This document shows, piece after piece, positions 15,578-56,485 of a stretch of DNA of 64,000 nucleotides. Origin of the DNA: an uncultured Gammaproteobacteria bacterium (lineage in GTDB: Bacteria > Cyanobacteriota > Vampirovibrionia > 2-02-FULL-35-15). Where the stretch lies: the NCBI GenBank assembly GCA_964602915.1, contig CAZRTB010000003.1:75914-139913 (forward strand), in the 5' to 3' direction. A program made the translations under genes and the position numbers. The notes beneath the pieces are model-generated. The model was given only the letters and a program-made list of their open reading frames with translations. It had not been told where the DNA came from and searched no databases. Numbering within the stretch: the first letter of the stretch is position 1; each line of letters opens with the position of its first letter.

Positions 15578-17140
15578 ATGCCTTATTTTAACAAAAAGCT
15601 CTATAATCTTTTTGTTATGATTTGGCTTAAAGATATTATTTCAATTTTATATCCAGAATTACTTGTGCTTTTAGCATTAATACTAGCGATTTTATTAAGT
15701 ACAAGTAAAAATAAAAGCCTTATATGGCTTACTTCTTTAATTCTTTTATTATCTGGACTGGTGCATATAGTCAAAACTCAGCTTCCACTAAAAGAACCTA
15801 TTCAGATTTTAAGCGGCATGTTTATAGCTGACAATTTAAGTATAGTTTTTAGAACATTAATACTACTAATATCAATTTTAGTTATTTTAGGATCTGTAAA
15901 GTATTCAGAAGGCTTTACTCATAAAAGTGAATTTATGATCGTATTGCTCAGTGCTATTTTAGGAGCCATGTTCCTTGCTGGTGCAAACGATCTCATTACA
16001 CTTTTTGTTGCACTTGAAACAATGGGTCTAAGTTCAATACTGTTAGTAGGATATTCAAAATATGACTTACGTAGTAATGAAGCTTCACTTAAATACCTTT
16101 TAAATAGTGCAAGTGCATCTGCCATATTTTTATTTGGATTATCTATTCTTTATGGGATATGTGGATCCACTCATTTCTATGAAATTAAATATAAATTATT
16201 ACAGCAATCGCTAAACGGCAATTTAAACATTTCAATTATTAGCGTAATGATTGTTTTAATTATCGGTGGACTTGCATTTAAACTTGGTGGTGCACCGATG
16301 CACATGTGGTCTCCAGATGTATATGAAGGAGCACCTACACCAGTAACTGCATTCCTTTCTATTATTTCAAAATCAGCAGGACTTGTAATCAGCATAAGAA
16401 TATTATTTAATTTATTTGATTTTGCAGTAAATTCATGGCAACCAATCATTGTAATTATTTCAATCTTATCGATGATAATCGGTAATTTTGTAGCACTTTC
16501 AGAAGTTATAAGCAGAGCTTCTATAAAAAGACTCATGGCATATTCCTCAATTGCACAGATTGGTTATATACTTTCAGGTCTAGCTCTTGCAAAACCAGAA
16601 ACAGTTTCAGCAAGCATCTTTTACATGATCGTTTATTCCATAATGAATATTGGCGCATTCCTTTGCATAATTGGTTTTGGAAATGAAGCAAACTCAGACA
16701 ATATTTCTGACTACGCAGGACTTGCAAAGAAAAGACCGCTTTTAGCTTTTGCATTTGCAATATGCTTATTTAACCTTGCAGGGTTACCAGTACCGCCTGC
16801 TGGATTTATAGCAAAGTTTATATTATTTAAAGTTAGTTTTTCAGCTGGTAGCTTAGGGGTTATATTAGGAAGTATTGGGCTAGTTACAACAATACTTTCA
16901 ATTTATTATTATTCATTTGTAGCGAAACTTATGATAGTCGACGAACCATCAGAAGCAGTTTTAAAAATTGATTCAAATCCTTTAGCTTTAGGAGCATCAA
17001 AAGAATTAAATACTGCTATTTCTTTTGCATTAGCAGGAATATTTGCACTGGTTTTTGTAAGCAGTTCTATACTTAAGTACTCAGATAAAACAGCTAATGG
17101 ACTAGCATCAATAGAACACATTATTAGTTATAAGAAGTAA
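15578..17140 (+). CDS. NuoN/ND2-like proton-pumping antiporter subunit (complex I / Mrp family), stand-alone
   Basis: MHMWSPDVYEGAPTPVTAF motif and about 14 predicted transmembrane helices. No other nuo or mrp genes in the window. Confidence 0.75.
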   Translation: MPYFNKKLYNLFVMIWLKDIISILYPELLVLLALILAILLSTSKNKSLIWLTSLILLLSGLVHIVKTQLPLKEPIQILSGMFIADNLSIVFRTLILLISILVILGSVKYSEGFTHKSEFMIVLLSAILGAMFLAGANDLITLFVALETMGLSSILLVGYSKYDLRSNEASLKYLLNSASASAIFLFGLSILYGICGSTHFYEIKYKLLQQSLNGNLNISIISVMIVLIIGGLAFKLGGAPMHMWSPDVYEGAPTPVTAFLSIISKSAGLVISIRILFNLFDFAVNSWQPIIVIISILSMIIGNFVALSEVISRASIKRLMAYSSIAQIGYILSGLALAKPETVSASIFYMIVYSIMNIGAFLCIIGFGNEANSDNISDYAGLAKKRPLLAFAFAICLFNLAGLPVPPAGFIAKFILFKVSFSAGSLGVILGSIGLVTTILSIYYYSFVAKLMIVDEPSEAVLKIDSNPLALGASKELNTAISFALAGIFALVFVSSSILKYSDKTANGLASIEHIISYKK

Positions 17141-27304: not shown

Positions 27305-30300
27305 TTGGAGAAAACAGAAATGTCAAAAGTTCAAACAATGGAAAGACCTCAAAACCAGAAGAAATCTGATCCAGAAACATTAAAGTTTATATATGGAGTT
27401 GTTTTAAGTTGTTTCCTTTTATCAGGAATAAGTGGTCTTATTTATGAAAATGTTTGGACTAGAATGCTTACATATGTTTTTGGTGGAACGACACTAGCAG
27501 TTAGTACTGTTTTAACAGCATTCCTTGGAGGTCTTGCACTAGGTAGTTATCTTGGCGGAAGATACATTGATCATTTCAAAAAGCCTTTATTAGCTTACGG
27601 GATACTAGAACTTGCTATAGGAATCTATGGGTTATTAGTTCCTACTCTTTTCAGTGAAGCTTTCCTTACACCGATCTGGCAAACAGTTGTTCAGATGTTT
27701 GAAGGTGTACAATTCATTTCCTATTTAGTTAGATTTCTTATTTCTGTAATGCTGTTAGCAGTTCCTACTGTTTTAATGGGAGCTACATTACCCATACTGA
27801 GCCGTTACCTAACAAATGTAAGGTCTGATGTTGTTCCATTTAACGTCGGAGCACTCTACACCATTAACACTGTAGGTGCTGTAATTGGATGTTTTTTAAG
27901 TGGTTTTATTTTCTTACCCTCTATTGGAGTAAGCCCTACTGTTTATATAGCAGCATTTTTAAACCTGATTTTAGCTTCAGCAGTTATTTTCCTTGCAAAA
28001 GCAAACTCAAAAGTACAAGTAGACACTCCAGAAGCTAAGCAGGATTCTAGGAACCTTGAAGAGCTTGTTGCTGAATCAGAAGATATTCCTCTTGAGTTAA
28101 TTAAACTAAGCATGATTGCATTTGCAGTAAGCGGATTTGTTGCTCTTGTTTTTGAAGTTGTTTGGACAAGAACTTTAACTCTTGTTTTCGGCTCATCTAC
28201 ATATGCATTCTCTACCATGTTAACTACATTTCTTATTGGGTTAGCCATAGGATCCGCTGTAATGACAAAGCTACAAGAAAAGATTGAAAGACCTGTCTTT
28301 TGGATCGGAGCACTTTTATGTGGCATTGCAGTCACTGGGTTTCTAACAGCGTGTATGTTTAATGAACTCCCATGGATGTTTTTATCTCAAGCTCAAAAAC
28401 TTCCTGATGATCCAGGAACTAGCTGGTTTTTACTTACTGTGCACAGATTTTTTGTATCCAGCTTTGTAATGTTCTTGCCTACACTTCTATCAGGAATGAT
28501 ATTCCCATTAATTATTAGAGTCTATTCTTCCAGACCAGATCATATTGGTGAAACAGTTGGAAAGCTTTATGCATTAAATACTTTTGGATGTATCATTGGC
28601 TCTTTTACTACAGGATTTATTTTCATCCCACTATTTGGATCTTTAGGTAGTGGTATTCAAGCAACTACAAAATTAGGTATCTTAGTTGCTCTTGGAACAG
28701 GATTATATATTGTATACAGAGATATTCTTCAGAATGATTCATTAAACGAGAAACAGTCAAAGATCTCAATTTCATGGATTTATATGTCAGCAGTGATTGG
28801 ATTAGTTTCTACTTTATTTGTAATTCCAGCATGGGACAAATCCATCATGACTACTGGAGTTGCAATTTATCACTCTCTCTCTTATAAGAATTTAACAAGA
28901 GAGCAATTCTTCAATATTTTCAAATTTGACAATGCAAGAGAAAAAATTAAGTTTTACAAAGAAGGGCTTACAACTGTAGTTACTATCACTGCAGATGAAA
29001 GTGGAAACACTACATTGCTTAAAAATAATGGTAAGGTTGATGCAGGTGTTCCTACTGATGGTGATGGTCCATCTCAAGCAGACATGGTTACTCAGGTATT
29101 ACTTGGACAACTACCTTTACTTTTACATAAGAATGAGCCGGAGAGTGCTCTTGTTGTTGGTTTGGGAAGTGGTTGTACCACTGGTTCTGTTGTTAGATAC
29201 CCATCTATTAAAAGCGTAAAAGTCTGTGAAATTGAAAGAGCTGTAATTGATGGCGATAAATATTTTGAGCCTCCACTGGATAAAGATCCTTTAGGTGGAA
29301 ATGGCTCTCCTTTAAATCCACAAAGAAATCCACTAGCTGAAAGAATTAAAGCTATCCATACTGATGGCAGAAATTACCTTTTAACTACAAAAGAAAAATT
29401 TGACATCATAATTTCACAGCCAGCAGATCCATGGGTAAATGGTGCATCACAACTATTTACTAGAGAATTCTGGAGACTAGGTTCTCAGCACTTAAAACCA
29501 AATGGTTTATTCTGCGAATGGATTCAACTTTACTCCATAACACCAGAATATCTTGGAGTACTTGTAAATAGCTTCAAGCAATCCTTCGGAAAATATGAGA
29601 ATGGTAAAAAAGTAAGTGATGGTTACGTTTATTTATTCAGACCAGGACTTGCTGGTGAAATTCTGCTCATTGGTTCAAACGATCCAATAGAAGTTGATGT
29701 AGACAAAATAGAAAAAAGAATTAAAACAAGCTTTACAGCAAAAGGGAAATCTGGAGCTGTATTAGAAGTTAAAACTCTTGATGACTTAGGAAGAATATCT
29801 ATAAACGATTCCGTAGGAATTGTTTCACAACTCCTTTTAGGTGATGATCAGGTTACTGAATTTGCAAAGATTCAAACTCAGAATGTCCCTAGATTAAAAT
29901 CATTACCGCTTGCTCAAAGAATCAATACAGACGACAACGTTATTATTGAATTTGAAGCTCCTAAAAAACTTCATTTGTTTTATGCACCAATTGCTGATAA
30001 CTTAGATTCAATTTCTCAAGGAACGAATGGAGATATCACTAAGTATTTAATTAACATCGGAAAAACAGATGTAGAAAAGTCTGCTTTCCTTGCAAGACTT
30101 GCAATTGCACATGTAAAGAAAGCAAATCTGCAAGATCCTAGAGGAAAACTCGTCGATCCAAACCTAAAAATTGCTACATTCCTTGCAGATAAAGCTGTAG
30201 AGCTAAATCCATCAGCAGAAGCATTTGCCGCAAAATACTTTGTGTCTAGCAGAAAAGGAAATGAAATAGAAGCAACTTCATACTTAACTAAAGCTGAAAC

Positions 30301-31231
30301 TGCTCCTGTTAATTCAGTTCATGATGCTATAGCAGTTGGTCAAATCAAAGCGCAAAAAGGAAATATTGATGGTTCTATATCTTCATTTAGACAAGCAACT
30401 CAGCTAGATCCTCAAAACAGTTCAGCATGGGCTAAGCTAGGAGAAGCGACATTTAACAGAGGACAATCATCAAATAACAGATCAGCTTTTGAAGAAGCTT
30501 TGTCATACTTCAAAAAATCTCGTGAAATCTCTCCATATAATGTGGAGGCATGGTCAGGAGAAGGTAATGTATACTTTAGCTTTGCAAGCAGATTTAAAGA
30601 CTTTAAATTTATTCCTCTTGCAGAACAAGCATATAGAAATTCTTTTAAAGCAGATTTAAACTACTGGCCTTCCCGTATAAATTATGCAAAGATTTTATAT
30701 GGTCAAGGTCCTACTAGATATAATGAGGCTCTCAAGAATTTTAGTCATGTAATAAGTAGACTTTATCCAGAGAGTGCTGAAGCCAGGTATTTAGCAGGAA
30801 TGATTTATCAATCACAAAATAATTTTGTGCCAGCTTATCAGCTTTATAACAGTGCTGTTCAGCTTGGACTATCTGGAAGTCAGCTGGCTGATGCTCAGGC
30901 TCAGATACAGATATTAACTGCTGAGCTTCAAAAAATGCAAAACGGTCAATATCAACCTCAACAGCAACCACAACAGCAACAACAGCAAGCTCAACAGCAA
31001 AATCAGGCAACTGACAATGCAAAGCAAGAGCTTGAAAAGAAAATTCAAGAAGCTGAAAAGAATCCAGAAAACGCAAAAAAAACTGAAGCTCTAAAAAGAG
31101 TACTTCAAATAGGTGATGAAATTAAAGAGGTTCCATCTGACGAAGCTGGAAATACTAAAAAATCCGATAGCGCCCCTCCAAGTAAAGCTCTAGAAGATTC
31201 ATTTAATCCATCATCTAACAAGTCAAACTAA
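27305..31231 (+). CDS. Large fusion protein: N-terminal MFS-like transmembrane domain, spermidine/spermine synthase-like aminopropyltransferase domain, TPR-like repeats, and a poly-Gln/charged tail
   Basis: About 12 N-terminal transmembrane helices; DIIISQPADPWVNGASQLFTREFW (spermidine synthase family); TPR-like helical repeats; QQQPQQQQQQAQQQ low-complexity stretch. Confidence 0.7.
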   Translation: MEKTEMSKVQTMERPQNQKKSDPETLKFIYGVVLSCFLLSGISGLIYENVWTRMLTYVFGGTTLAVSTVLTAFLGGLALGSYLGGRYIDHFKKPLLAYGILELAIGIYGLLVPTLFSEAFLTPIWQTVVQMFEGVQFISYLVRFLISVMLLAVPTVLMGATLPILSRYLTNVRSDVVPFNVGALYTINTVGAVIGCFLSGFIFLPSIGVSPTVYIAAFLNLILASAVIFLAKANSKVQVDTPEAKQDSRNLEELVAESEDIPLELIKLSMIAFAVSGFVALVFEVVWTRTLTLVFGSSTYAFSTMLTTFLIGLAIGSAVMTKLQEKIERPVFWIGALLCGIAVTGFLTACMFNELPWMFLSQAQKLPDDPGTSWFLLTVHRFFVSSFVMFLPTLLSGMIFPLIIRVYSSRPDHIGETVGKLYALNTFGCIIGSFTTGFIFIPLFGSLGSGIQATTKLGILVALGTGLYIVYRDILQNDSLNEKQSKISISWIYMSAVIGLVSTLFVIPAWDKSIMTTGVAIYHSLSYKNLTREQFFNIFKFDNAREKIKFYKEGLTTVVTITADESGNTTLLKNNGKVDAGVPTDGDGPSQADMVTQVLLGQLPLLLHKNEPESALVVGLGSGCTTGSVVRYPSIKSVKVCEIERAVIDGDKYFEPPLDKDPLGGNGSPLNPQRNPLAERIKAIHTDGRNYLLTTKEKFDIIISQPADPWVNGASQLFTREFWRLGSQHLKPNGLFCEWIQLYSITPEYLGVLVNSFKQSFGKYENGKKVSDGYVYLFRPGLAGEILLIGSNDPIEVDVDKIEKRIKTSFTAKGKSGAVLEVKTLDDLGRISINDSVGIVSQLLLGDDQVTEFAKIQTQNVPRLKSLPLAQRINTDDNVIIEFEAPKKLHLFYAPIADNLDSISQGTNGDITKYLINIGKTDVEKSAFLARLAIAHVKKANLQDPRGKLVDPNLKIATFLADKAVELNPSAEAFAAKYFVSSRKGNEIEATSYLTKAETAPVNSVHDAIAVGQIKAQKGNIDGSISSFRQATQLDPQNSSAWAKLGEATFNRGQSSNNRSAFEEALSYFKKSREISPYNVEAWSGEGNVYFSFASRFKDFKFIPLAEQAYRNSFKADLNYWPSRINYAKILYGQGPTRYNEALKNFSHVISRLYPESAEARYLAGMIYQSQNNFVPAYQLYNSAVQLGLSGSQLADAQAQIQILTAELQKMQNGQYQPQQQPQQQQQQAQQQNQATDNAKQELEKKIQEAEKNPENAKKTEALKRVLQIGDEIKEVPSDEAGNTKKSDSAPPSKALEDSFNPSSNKSN

Positions 31232-41737: not shown

Positions 41738-42433
41738 TTAACTTTGTTTAACTAAAGAAGGGGCTTCATTCTTAGAAGAAACTTTTGATATTACATAGTT
41801 TTTCACATCATTAAAATTTAATCCTAGATTTATAGCAGATTGTTCAAGTAGTCTAGACGCAAAACCTTCTGAGGAAAGTGCTCTAAATGCAGATCTGTTA
41901 AATAACTCATTTACTAATTTTTTAGTATTCAATTGCCCAGCATCAATAACATTCACAGAGAATAAAGCAGTTCTTCCTGCAAATCTTACAAGCATATTTC
42001 CAAATCCAGAAGCCGCTTTTGCAAATAAATTAGTGTAGTTATTTGGTTCAAAGAAAGTCGAGCCTAATGTGTTTTCTAAAGCTCTTGTTGATACATCTAC
42101 CCAATCTTTTTTTTCAATTTTTTGACCTTTTGCAAGTTTAAACAATGGGATTTCAATTGTTTTTCTTAAAGACTCAGTACCACCTCTGTAAAGTAATCTT
42201 GAAAACCCATCGATAGAACCTTCGGGAATACGAATCAAACTTCTGACAATAGCATCACTAAAGAGTCTGATAATATCAACAAAATCAAAATTTGCAGGTT
42301 GCGGAAAGGGTAAAGTAGCAGGTCTGTCTACTGAAATTTCTGTTTTTTGGGGAGCTGGACTTGGCTGAGGAGCTGGCCTCGTTCTATGAGTTTCCACAGG
42401 CTTTAATTTTTTTAGAGGAGCTACCGTCATCAA
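41738..42433 (-). CDS. Hypothetical protein with a Pro-rich N-terminus
   Basis: ORF with an N-terminal PAPQPSPAPQ stretch. No recognised domain. Confidence 0.4.
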   Translation of the reverse strand: MMTVAPLKKLKPVETHRTRPAPQPSPAPQKTEISVDRPATLPFPQPANFDFVDIIRLFSDAIVRSLIRIPEGSIDGFSRLLYRGGTESLRKTIEIPLFKLAKGQKIEKKDWVDVSTRALENTLGSTFFEPNNYTNLFAKAASGFGNMLVRFAGRTALFSVNVIDAGQLNTKKLVNELFNRSAFRALSSEGFASRLLEQSAINLGLNFNDVKNYVISKVSSKNEAPSLVKQS

Positions 42434-42681
42434 TTTTATTTAGAACTACTGTATATACCTTCTTACCTAATTCCATACACTAGGTATGGAGTACATTGGT
42501 AAATGTATCAAAACACTAGCTATAAAAATACGAATATAAACTCAAAGATTAAATATTTTAATGTTTAAGTTAAAATATTAAATCCATCTAAACTTCAAAC
42601 AAATATTAGCCATATATTTCAAGAGAAAACAGTCCGAAGATTAAATGTATTTAATCTTCGCAGAGATTTACCGAATTCGTA

Positions 42682-51918: not shown

Positions 51919-51952
51919 AAGCCCTGGGCGAAATATGACTTTAACATTAAAT

Positions 51953-52026
51953 TAGCTGGAGGCGGACTTGAACCGCCGACCTGTGGGTTATGAATCCACC
52001 GCTCTCACCAACTGAGCTACCCAGCC
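51953..52026 (-). tRNA. tRNA with a CAU anticodon (Met; could instead be a lysidine-modified Ile2)
   Basis: Manual fold: acceptor GGCTGGG/TCCAGCT (two G-U pairs), D-arm GCTC/GAGC, anticodon loop TTCATAA, T-arm GGCGG-TTCAAGT-CCGCC, discriminator A. No encoded CCA. Confidence 0.8.
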
Positions 52027-52219
52027 ATTTCTTCTATCAATCCTTTTTAGAGGACAGGATTTACCGAATGAATCAGATAAATCCTTCATGCTTCAAATAT
52101 GTCATTAAGAAAAGCATAATAGAGTAGGTTAATTATTATACCTAGAAATACAGATTTTATGAAAATTAATTAAAATTCTCGACTCAGGAGCAAAATCCTA
52201 ATAAATCGTCATATGTCTT

Positions 52220-54488: not shown

Positions 54489-54700
54489 AACTATCTATTT
54501 TAAATAATTAAGAAGAATTTGTGTAGAATTTTATAGAATTTAATTAAATTTTATCCTTAACCAATCTGAATATAGGTTTTATTGAAGAATTGAGTCAAAG
54601 AGGCTAGAATTTTTTGAACTATGCTAGTAATATATTTGGTTGTAAGGCTTAATTCTTAAGAATATTAAGGAATTAAGCCAAAATATCAAAGGAGAGAGTT

Positions 54701-54880
54701 ATGTCAAAAGAAAATTTAGTAGTAGGATCAAAAGTAAAAGATCTAATCAAAGATTCTGAACTTAGATCAGATGGTGATTTAGTAGAAGCACTTTCTGATA
54801 AAGTTGAAGCGATGTTAAAAGAAGCAATGAAACGTTGTAAAGAAAATGGTAGAAGTACAGTAAGACCTTGCGATTTATAA
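54701..54880 (+). CDS. Small histone-fold protein (bacterial histone HBb/DUF1931-like), 59 aa, not in the ORF track
   Basis: Manually translated: MSKENLVVGSKVKDLIKDSELRSDGDLVEALSDKVEAMLKEAMKRCKENGRSTVRPCDL. Shine-Dalgarno AAAGGAGAG 7 nt upstream and a textbook terminator immediately downstream. The helix-loop-helix pattern and the Lys and conserved Arg positions resemble bacterial histone-fold singlets. Confidence 0.55.
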   Translation: MSKENLVVGSKVKDLIKDSELRSDGDLVEALSDKVEAMLKEAMKRCKENGRSTVRPCDL

Positions 54881-54904
54881 GCCTATCTTTATAAATTAGA
54901 TTTT

Positions 54905-54932
54905 AAAAGCCTGCATTTCGCAGGCTTTTTTA
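54905..54932 (+). terminator. Rho-independent terminator of the histone-fold gene
   Basis: AAAAGCCTGC-atttc-GCAGGCTTTT followed by TTATTTT. Confidence 0.75.
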
Positions 54933-54949
54933 TTTTATAAGTTGCACTT

Positions 54950-56485
54950 TTACATTGCCGCAGAGCGTTTTACACTTTCTAATAATATTCTAGCTGAAAC
55001 AATATTTTCGGAAGATCCATTATTTCCGGTATTAATTTTCCTATCTATATCATCTAAATAAAGTTCATATGGACTTTTTCCTTTATGACCATGAAACAAA
55101 ATATAGTCTGGATCAACCAGATTTTCGTACAGTTGATCAATAGCAGTACTGAAAGGAGGTTTAGAACCTTGAATTGTAAAACTATCAATAGTAGGAATAC
55201 TAGAAGTAAGAAGAGTTTTTTTAACATGCTCTGAAACTGCAAGATCCCCTTGTTCTAACTTTGCAATTTCTCCAGTTCTAGAATCAATAGCAGAGCAAGC
55301 TACTCCAATATAGCTCCTAGAAACACCGAGTGAGTTAATCCTTTCAATTGGTTTTGGAAAAAAAGTTCTATCAACAATATCATTAATTTTAAAGACAACC
55401 TCAGTCAAAAGATGTTTTTTTGTTTGCCTGACCTGAGTATCACGACCGCCAAGCTCCTTTAATGTTTTTATTTGTAATTTATCAACTTTTTTATTTCCTA
55501 TTAAAAAATAAAATGGGGGCTTAGAATTATGATCTTTTTTATAATCTTCAATGCCTTCAACCACTGCATTTAGAGGAATAGAATTAATATCTAAAAGACC
55601 TGGATCCAGGATATAATGCTTTTTACCCTTGCCATCTTCTACAAAACAATTTCCAAAAGTTAAATCAAATGGACTAAAAAATAATCCTACAAGGTTTGCA
55701 GACTCAGCCGCAATTTCAGCGACATCAAATTCATCAGTATTTAAACCATATTTTTCTTCAAACCCTTTAATTAACAAAAAAGCTTCTGGTCTTGGAAACA
55801 TTGTGCCTATCAAAGCATCTAGATTCGTTCCTAATTTTCTTAAGTGTTTCACCTTTACGACATCAACACTTTCTCCTGAGGTAAATTTATAAGCCATTCT
55901 CAAATATCTATTAACCCATTTCTTATATTCATCTCTATTCCTATAAAATTTTTCAAATTTAGTTTCAGTAGTTACTTTTAATACTTTTGAATTTAAAATA
56001 TGAAAAGCAAATCCACTGGCAGGAAGGACTCCTGCAGAAGTACCATAAAAAGAATTAAAATTATTCATCCCTGAAAGCAAAGAGATTACATTTACAAGCA
56101 TTCCAGCACCCACTTCAGGAATTACTCTTATTTCTCCACCAGAAAAAATAATACCTCTAAAATTGTTGAGATTTTTCTTATCAAGAGATAAAGCACAGAT
56201 AATCTCAGCCAATTTTTGCTTGTTATCGTCAGAGAGATTATTAATTAATGCTCTAACTTCTGTAACCAAGAAATTAGAATACATTACTTTGTTTTTGTCG
56301 CCAGTAAATCTGGATATAATATTTTTTTCTATACAATCTTCAAAGAAACGATCAACAGATCTAAATCCTTCAGAATAATTCCTTGGACTTTTTAAAATCT
56401 CTGCACTTGAGACTTCAGTACAAGTTCTTTCTCTCAAAAAATTCCCCCTAAAGAGGGAAATCCCATTTATTGTTTTACTAATCAT
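54950..56485 (-). CDS. Patatin-like phospholipase domain protein (putative)
   Basis: Gly-rich oxyanion segment IIFSGGEIRVIPEVGAGML and lipase pentapeptide GTSAG, a DG(K)G segment later. N-terminal extension of about 100 aa. Confidence 0.45.
   Translation of the reverse strand: MISKTINGISLFRGNFLRERTCTEVSSAEILKSPRNYSEGFRSVDRFFEDCIEKNIISRFTGDKNKVMYSNFLVTEVRALINNLSDDNKQKLAEIICALSLDKKNLNNFRGIIFSGGEIRVIPEVGAGMLVNVISLLSGMNNFNSFYGTSAGVLPASGFAFHILNSKVLKVTTETKFEKFYRNRDEYKKWVNRYLRMAYKFTSGESVDVVKVKHLRKLGTNLDALIGTMFPRPEAFLLIKGFEEKYGLNTDEFDVAEIAAESANLVGLFFSPFDLTFGNCFVEDGKGKKHYILDPGLLDINSIPLNAVVEGIEDYKKDHNSKPPFYFLIGNKKVDKLQIKTLKELGGRDTQVRQTKKHLLTEVVFKINDIVDRTFFPKPIERINSLGVSRSYIGVACSAIDSRTGEIAKLEQGDLAVSEHVKKTLLTSSIPTIDSFTIQGSKPPFSTAIDQLYENLVDPDYILFHGHKGKSPYELYLDDIDRKINTGNNGSSENIVSARILLESVKRSAAM

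Follow-up and report, generated by a model that had tools for sequence, protein, structure and literature searches.

A histone gene in a conserved Melainabacteria locus

The 64-kb window analysed here (the whole stretch of contig CAZRTB010000003.1 presented above, G+C ~ 32%) contains a short gene whose product, MSKENLVVGSKVKDLIKDSELRSDGDLVEALSDKVEAMLKEAMKRCKENGRSTVRPCDL, is a bona fide bacterial histone. A first-pass annotation of this DNA had proposed a clean 180-nt gene for a protein of 59 residues at this location, and the open reading frame (ORF) that we examined encodes exactly the sequence quoted there. The description of the gene as unannotated holds for the supplied ORF track only, since public metagenome assemblies include a call of this gene. 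The identical protein was found on five metagenome contigs, where the neighbours are also the same, and its orthologues in metagenome-assembled genomes (MAGs) of Melainabacteria have been deposited as 'hypothetical protein'. The locus comprises, in order, a thiamine pyrophosphate enzyme, a pterin-4a-carbinolamine dehydratase (-), the histone (+), a 511-aa protein (-), and a FadB-like protein (-). This gene order is kept across ~ 20 Melainabacteria loci, which indicates vertical inheritance within the lineage. Because the histone gene lies between a divergent gene on one side and a convergent gene on the other, it is monocistronic. No histone paralogue was found within the window, and a tblastn search with E. 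coli HupA, covering the window and the related loci, gave no match for HU. The features of the gene and its flanks are listed in Table 1.

Table 1. Positions of the histone gene and its associated sequence features in the window
Feature	Position	Strand	Basis or remark
-10-like hexamer TATATT	54631-54636	+	Invariant upstream columns in 9 Melainabacteria loci
Leader stem-loop GGCTTAATTCTTAA ... TTAAGGAATTAAGCC, one bulge	54646-54679	+	Perfect 10-bp arms
Shine-Dalgarno sequence AAAGGAG	54688-54694	+	Read directly, 6 nt before the ATG
Coding sequence of the 59-aa histone, stop codon included	54701-54880	+	ORF list, ATG start, 180 nt
Codon for C46	54836-54838	+	
Codon for C57	54869-54871	+	
Intrinsic terminator, hairpin 54905-54929 with T-run and A-run flank	54905-54936	probably both	

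An AlphaFold2 single-chain model of the protein was built on the family alignment. The model has a mean predicted local distance difference test (pLDDT) score of 92.8 and places helices at residues 9–18, 27–48, and 56–58, which is the histone arrangement of alpha1, loop L1, a long alpha2, loop L2, and alpha3. The third helix is only three residues long and alpha2 spans 22 residues, in line with the definition of alpha3 histones in Schwab et al. 2024, namely an alpha3 cut to 3–4 residues and a shortened alpha2. When the model was compared with the PDB using Foldseek, the top match was HLp of Leptospira perolatii (9qt0/9qt1), with a template modelling (TM) score of 0.90–0.95, an rmsd (root-mean-square deviation) of 0.8 Å, and 43–44% identity. 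HTkC of Thermococcus kodakarensis and HBb of Bdellovibrio bacteriovorus came after HLp, all nine of the best PDB matches were prokaryotic histones, and the eukaryotic H3, H4, and TAF folds ranked below them. Searches with the sequence alone gave the same company: phmmer against PDB sequences returned HLp (9qt0) at 1.2e-10, HTkC (9f2c) at 5.4e-5, and HBb (8fvx, 8cmp) at ~ 2e-4, while a family profile built from 37 members returned HLp at 1.8e-20, HBb at 1e-9, and HTkC at 5e-8. The structure prediction and the profile search that had been suggested as checks on the histone-fold claim therefore both bear it out. The L2 loop carries an invariant R51-S52-T53-V54 together with an invariant D58, that is, the RxTV motif with its RD clamp.

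Prokaryotic histones of this size fall into classes that differ in how dimers assemble. HLp is a face-to-face (FtF) alpha3 histone (PDB 9QT0/9QT1/9QT2; Nat Commun 2025, PMC12701072), and, as described in Schwab et al. 2024 and PMC12701072, FtF histones such as HLp and HTkC form a ring-shaped tetramer, with HLp wrapping ~ 60 bp of DNA, whereas HBb belongs to the 'bacterial dimers', which bend DNA. According to the same texts, bacterial dimers lack two conserved residues at the end of alpha2, an Arg and an Asn (R48 and N52 in the FtF logo, which also has R54), that form the dimer-dimer interface; in HLp the tetramer signature is R49/N53/R55, and S14, K15, K17, K21, and R59 account for 52% of the DNA-binding energy. 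Our alignment gives a query numbering equal to that of HLp minus 4, and this offset reproduces the residue names of the HLp paper (A13, S14, K15, K17, K21, T27, G29, R49, S52, N53, R55, T61, and D62). With it, all five main DNA-binding residues are kept, as S10, K11, K13, K17, and R55; the tetramer signature is kept as R45/N49/R51; and the RD clamp R55-D62 is kept as R51-D58. None of the 121 family sequences departs from R45, N49, R51, or D58, and S10, K11, G25, and T53 are likewise invariant in the alignment of 121 relatives. Both residues whose absence marks bacterial dimers are thus present and invariant, at positions where HBb has S and D. We filed the protein as an FtF-type alpha3 histone because the DNA-contact, R/N/R, and RD clamp residues are all retained and because HBb differs at two of the interface positions. 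Membership of the alpha3/FtF sequence family is very likely, and the torus-shaped tetramer that defines the class is predicted from the likeness to HLp.

The comparison with characterised histones supports this placement with one caveat. HLp is matched in size (a single fold of ~ 60 residues), in the truncated alpha3, and in all the signature residues given above, but it has an N-terminal extension that the protein here lacks, a charge of +2 over the aligned core as opposed to 0, and T50, S52, T61, and F63 where C46, E48, C57, and L59 stand here. It also comes from Spirochaetota rather than Melainabacteria and is encoded beside SMC, MAP, and DUF350 genes rather than metabolic ones. HTkC (PDB 9F2C) agrees in fold, size, and R45 (TM 0.86–0.87, rmsd 1.3 Å), but is only 33% identical and has E at the N49 position. 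The greater closeness to characterised FtF members accordingly holds for the HLp score, since the archaeal FtF histone HTkC scores no better in the profile search than HBb does. The protein had been described at first as HBb/DUF1931-like, of which the histone-fold singlet stands and the rest is better replaced by HLp-like. DUF1931 proteins (PF09123; Aquifex AQ328, Thermus 1WWI) share the histone-fold superfamily, and weak PF09123 matches were seen in 7 of 37 relatives (best 2.4e-4), but they are doublets with two folds per chain (~ 150 aa), described in PMC12701072 as lacking the DNA-binding signature residues that are kept here. The 59-aa protein has one fold and no PF09123 match at E ≤ 10, and the DUF1931 label arises only from the depositor's name for the HLp entry in the PDB.

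Homologues were numerous. At E < 1e-3 we obtained 120, of which 72 are 75–97% identical and nearly all exactly 59 aa long. Among species representatives, a 'Candidatus Caenarcanales' MAG, from a group within Melainabacteria / Vampirovibriophyceae, matches best (93%), followed by seven further 'Candidatus Melainabacteria' MAGs at 83–88%, several of them from groundwater, going by their names. Myxococcota, Nannocystaceae among them, make up most of the next tier, at 55–74% identity, which also has some Planctomycetota. When 1.84 billion cluster representatives were searched with the profile, 1,626 relatives scored at E ≤ 1e-3, of which 361 reached E ≤ 1e-10. The 73 proteins of the Melainabacteria tier form one clade with zero intruders in a neighbour-joining tree, and its sister is a clade of the Myxococcota type. 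These Myxococcota FtF-type proteins (Nannocystaceae, Plesiocystis, Enhygromyxa; 60–74% identity) are the nearest outside the clade and share its VVGSKVK and NGRSTVRP.DL motifs, but they differ in a basic N-terminal tail (MAKxxKK...), a charge of ~ +4, and mostly H or Y at position 57.

The gene is under strong purifying selection, with a median pairwise dN/dS (ratio of nonsynonymous to synonymous substitution rates) of 0.105 and variable sites distributed over the codon positions as 23/12/53 of 59. It is also the best-conserved gene of its neighbourhood, at 79–93% identity between loci as against 29–38% for the adjacent 511-aa gene. This HLp-type histone is, in short, a vertically inherited and highly constrained single-gene unit in one Melainabacteria lineage.

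Expression signals and a stem-loop in the leader

Upstream of the gene, the TATAnT columns that contain the TATATT hexamer are invariant across 9 loci (T143, A144, T145, A146, and T148 of alignment A2), and two loci have an extended TGnTATAAT at the hexamer position. TATATT probably acts as the -10 element of the promoter, in which case transcription would start near 54643. No canonically spaced -35 element was found for it, the nearest candidate TTGAAC (54614-54619) being only 11 nt upstream. A canonical sigma-70 -35 was rejected on the same grounds across loci, where the conserved TTGAC/TTGAAC lies just 11–13 nt from TATAnT and is too close, and the promoter candidate returned by our scan, TTGAAG-17-TAGAAT (54582-54610), is not conserved in the other loci. 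With no normal -35 and an unconserved scan candidate, the promoter was assigned from the -10 hexamer by itself. In most of the related loci (L006, L008, L010, L012, and others) an upstream block of the form ACTAGCAAATTTGAC-N7-TAGGTAATATATTT was also observed, equivalent to 54603-54637 of the window. Its core, CAAATTTG, is itself palindromic; the window and L005 have diverged copies (GGCTAGAATTTTTTGAAC...). A possible role for this block is that of a regulator site overlapping the promoter.

The ribosome binding site agrees with the AGGAG-type Shine-Dalgarno sequence of the first-pass annotation except for a trivial difference in spacing (6 nt, not 7), and every aligned locus has AAGGAG in the corresponding position. 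A hairpin with a T-tract had likewise been reported after the stop codon and is indeed present. It has the form AAAAGCCTGC-ATTTC-GCAGGCTTTT, with 10 pairs (5 of them G-C) and a loop of 5, followed by TTATTTT in the tail TTATTTTATA. Three terminator-like sites were counted in this 1.2-kb stretch, compared to 0.4 ± 0.6 in shuffled sequences, and in related loci the hairpin sequences differ while the T-run is conserved. The hairpin has an A-run before it and a T-run after it, and it folds on both strands, with z = -4.9 for + and z = -2.95 for -. The convergent 511-aa gene (- strand) has its end at 54950, and the hairpin probably terminates both convergent genes. Taken from its sequence signals, the gene would be a single-gene transcription unit with its own -10 element, Shine-Dalgarno sequence, and intrinsic terminator, a layout that suits high constitutive expression.

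Between the hexamer and the Shine-Dalgarno sequence lies the 10-bp perfect inverted repeat pointed out at first pass. Its arms, GGCTTAATTC (54646-54655) and GAATTAAGCC (54670-54679), are perfect as claimed, the pairing continues to 14 pairs with a single bulge, and the motif recurs in relatives. The repeat is not exceptional by itself: the 64-kb window holds five perfect 10-nt repeats of the hairpin type, compared to 3.1 ± 2.1 in shuffles. Two of the five flank the 180-nt gene. The remaining three are at 42552-42579, 42635-42660, and 15589-15617, the first two being less than 110 nt apart, between ORFs ending at 42433 and 42682. As RNA, the segment 54640-54703 folds at -14.7 kcal/mol (z -3.25) with the Shine-Dalgarno sequence unpaired, and the full leader has z = -4.4. 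Rfam models applied to the leader and the terminator gave nothing near gathering score.

Among 19 distinct leaders, nine have an RRTTYY-N12-RRAAYY hairpin 53–61 nt before the ATG, and most of the other ten have a different or weaker hairpin instead. We asked of this motif whether it is more plausibly an RNA stem or the DNA operator of a dimeric repressor located just downstream of the promoter, as the repeat had been proposed to be 'an operator or attenuator'. The attenuator was rejected, given that CCAAAAUAUCAAAGGAG rather than a U-run follows the stem and that the Shine-Dalgarno sequence is unpaired in the minimum-energy fold. An operator would explain the constant 12-nt spacing of the palindrome, from AATTCY to RGAATT, in those nine leaders, its position directly downstream of the conserved -10 hexamer, a site at which a repressor would obstruct RNA polymerase, and the sequence conservation of the arm core, in which 4 of 12 pairs never vary. 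The substitutions lean the other way. Across eight distinct hairpins, 87.5% of cells are paired and 5 of the 12 pairs change on both sides with pairing kept; the covariation score of 0.301 (0.224 in shuffles) was reached by only 4 of 500 shuffles, and pairing collapses when the partner columns are slid. In a count made with a transition-blind motif in a fixed register, the non-canonical positions are 13 G.U against 4 A.C, the A.C cases being at frayed ends, so that the non-Watson-Crick positions inside helices are G.U on the sense strand. This bias points to selection on the sense-strand RNA and not on a DNA palindrome. The motif is, moreover, missing from 10 of the 19 leaders, most of which have a different hairpin. 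The substitution pattern is suggestive, for a sample of eight related sequences, and favours the RNA stem; we give the operator a minor share of the probability.

If TATATT is the -10 element, with a start near 54643, the RNA stem-loop, which begins at 54646, would be at the very 5' end of the mRNA. Stem-loops at the 5' end are known to stabilise bacterial mRNAs, ompA being an example, and by this analogy the leader stem-loop most likely stabilises the message or tunes its dosage.

Charge, interface residues, and possible function

By analogy with HLp, we consider it probable that the protein is an FtF histone that organises DNA as a tetramer. Two chains would form the usual histone-fold dimer, and a pair of dimers would meet at alpha2's C-terminal end, loop L2, and alpha3 (R45, N49, and R51) to give a ring-shaped tetramer. 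The tetramer would contact the DNA backbone independently of sequence via S10, K11, K13, K17, R55, and the L1 and L2 loops, and would wrap or bridge ~ 60 bp, acting as a nucleoid-organising protein. The -10 element of its own, the 5'-terminal stem-loop, the strong ribosome binding site, and the terminator would together suit high constitutive expression. In L. interrogans, FtF histones are reported to be essential and present in large amounts, and the HLp tetramer is reported to wrap ~ 60 bp. The precedents of Leptospira and Bdellovibrio and the conserved expression signals make the role of major chromatin protein, which the first-pass annotation had put forward, plausible, with caution because the net charge is 0.

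Several observations weigh against this reading. The protein has no net charge (12 K/R and 12 D/E; isoelectric point (pI) 6.21), and the median charge of the Melainabacteria clade is also 0, whereas other bacterial relatives have a median charge of +4 and a pI of 9.65, and HLp, HTkC, and HBb carry +2 to +3 over the aligned core. Part of this gap is due to the lack here of the short basic tail that Myxococcota and Planctomycetota relatives have at the N-terminus. Of the six residues named for HLp's hydrogen-bond network between dimers, three are changed (S52 to E48, T61 to C57, and F63 to L59). The curated Pfam cut-offs are not reached either, although the E-values are significant: DUF5805 (PF19121) scores 23.7 bits (E 6e-5) against a gathering threshold of 28.5, and CBFD_NFYB_HMF (PF00808) scores 17.5 bits (E 5e-3) against 21.4. 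No NCBIfam model matched the protein at E ≤ 10. These sub-threshold scores explain why automatic annotation leaves it 'hypothetical', and the locus thereby shows an annotation gap.

The altered residues are specific to the lineage. C46 and C57 were found in 73 of 73 histones of the Melainabacteria clade and E48 in 71 of 73, and outside the clade C57 is present in 3 of 48 sequences. C46, E48, and C57 correspond to T50, S52, and T61 of HLp, of which S52 and T61 are in the tetramer interface; the two cysteines lie at or beside the predicted tetramer interface. A disulfide or metal site at C46/C57 is possible. Given the neutral charge and the altered interface residues, caution is needed in transferring the HLp mechanism. 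One could go further and propose that the clade is a distinct, charge-neutral and tail-less kind of FtF histone, with C46, C57, and E48 at or near the dimer-dimer interface, in which assembly and DNA wrapping are switched by redox state or metal, dosage is set by the stem-loop, and the protein is the principal nucleoid organiser of the lineage. We regard this full combination as speculative and improbable. If true, it would supply the principal nucleoid organiser of one lineage of non-photosynthetic relatives of cyanobacteria.

The same traits could mean that the protein has the histone fold and a specialised role, such as that of a regulator present in small amounts, a DNA binder that responds to redox state, or a scaffold between proteins, instead of being a global chromatin protein. 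The charge of 0 and pI of 6.2 in a family otherwise at +4 and 9.65 would suit such a role, as would the (near-)invariant C46, E48, and C57, rare elsewhere, and the metabolic neighbours, which are unlike the SMC-linked context of hlp in Leptospira; authors in the field also warn that not every prokaryotic histone-fold protein need organise genomes. Yet none of the main DNA-contact residues varies, the degree of conservation is extreme for 59 aa, the core charge is only two units from that of HLp, and the strong Shine-Dalgarno sequence, with a promoter and a terminator belonging to this gene alone, fits high expression. We consider a specialised role unlikely on balance.

Another way to read the protein is as a histone-fold dimer that bends DNA like HBb (Bd0055; PDB 8CMP, 8FVX, 9EZZ) and forms no face-to-face tetramer. 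HBb has the same fold, nearly as close to the model as that of HLp (TM 0.84–0.89, rmsd 0.8–0.9 Å), as well as the alpha1 lysines K11, K13, and K17, the RxTV loop, and the RD clamp, and the three replaced HLp interface residues (E48, C57, and L59) also count in favour of this reading. Against it, the equivalents of R48 and N52, which are S and D in HBb, are kept in the protein and in all 120 relatives, and the profile matches HLp with an E-value eleven orders of magnitude below that for HBb. We consider an HBb-like dimer unlikely, and the FtF assignment is retained. A chance open frame in AT-rich intergenic DNA, as might be suspected of 59 codons skipped by the supplied ORF track, is refuted by the 120 homologues (72 of them at 75–97% identity), the 1,626 cluster representatives found by profile, the dN/dS of 0.105 with change biased to third codon positions, and the confident fold prediction (pLDDT 92.8).

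The family has been described by Hocher et al. 2023, Schwab et al. 2024, and Hu et al. 2025. Their text places bacterial FtF histones in Spirochaetota, Planctomycetota, Bdellovibrionota, and Myxococcota and names neither Melainabacteria nor Cyanobacteria, and the supplements of Schwab et al., in their text form, do not mention Cyanobacteria or Vampirovibrionia. Our literature searches found no paper linking Melainabacteria with prokaryotic histones and none on 'DUF5805'. Supplementary Table 1 of Hocher et al. 2023 does list two proteins from Melainabacteria MAGs, OGI19965.1 and OGI13341.1, without discussion, and their sequences are those of loci L010 and L012. The table gives values of 6.18 and 6.22 for them, which we read as pI. 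The Melainabacteria histone clade is thus already catalogued and unexamined, and the family itself is not new; what has gone undescribed is the neutral charge, the invariant cysteines, and the leader stem-loop. Recognition of bacterial histones dates only from 2023–2025, and just two are known to have been characterised in depth: HBb, a dimer that bends DNA, and HLp, which wraps it as a tetramer. Melainabacteria are the non-photosynthetic sister group of cyanobacteria; as a phylum they are absent from the published statements on where FtF histones occur. The clade offers a natural variant with which to ask how much positive charge an FtF histone needs for DNA binding, and whether the tetramer interface is tunable.

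Fused relatives, neighbours, and other features of the window

The top-scoring relatives in the library of 1.84 billion proteins, P0121–P0130, lie outside the window and are tandem doublets of the FtF-like fold, with two full VVGSKVK...NGRSTVRPxDL units in 118–160 aa. Three of them (P0121, P0122, and P0124) have a hydrophobic, signal-peptide-like N-terminus and are possibly exported. No mention of fused or possibly exported FtF doublets was found in the available text of the histone papers.

The convergent 511-aa neighbour (54950-56485, -) has no Pfam match. Its identity between loci (29–38%) is below that of the other neighbours (44–79%) as well as that of the histone. It is a fast-evolving protein whose synteny is conserved.

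Elsewhere in the window, a 1,308-aa ORF at 27305-31231 (+) combines a major facilitator superfamily (MFS) transporter with spermine/spermidine synthase domains and C-terminal tetratricopeptide (TPR) repeats, which is an unusual fusion. A tRNA-Met (CAT) at 51952-52027 (-) was the sole RNA gene detected in the 64 kb and the sole Rfam match.

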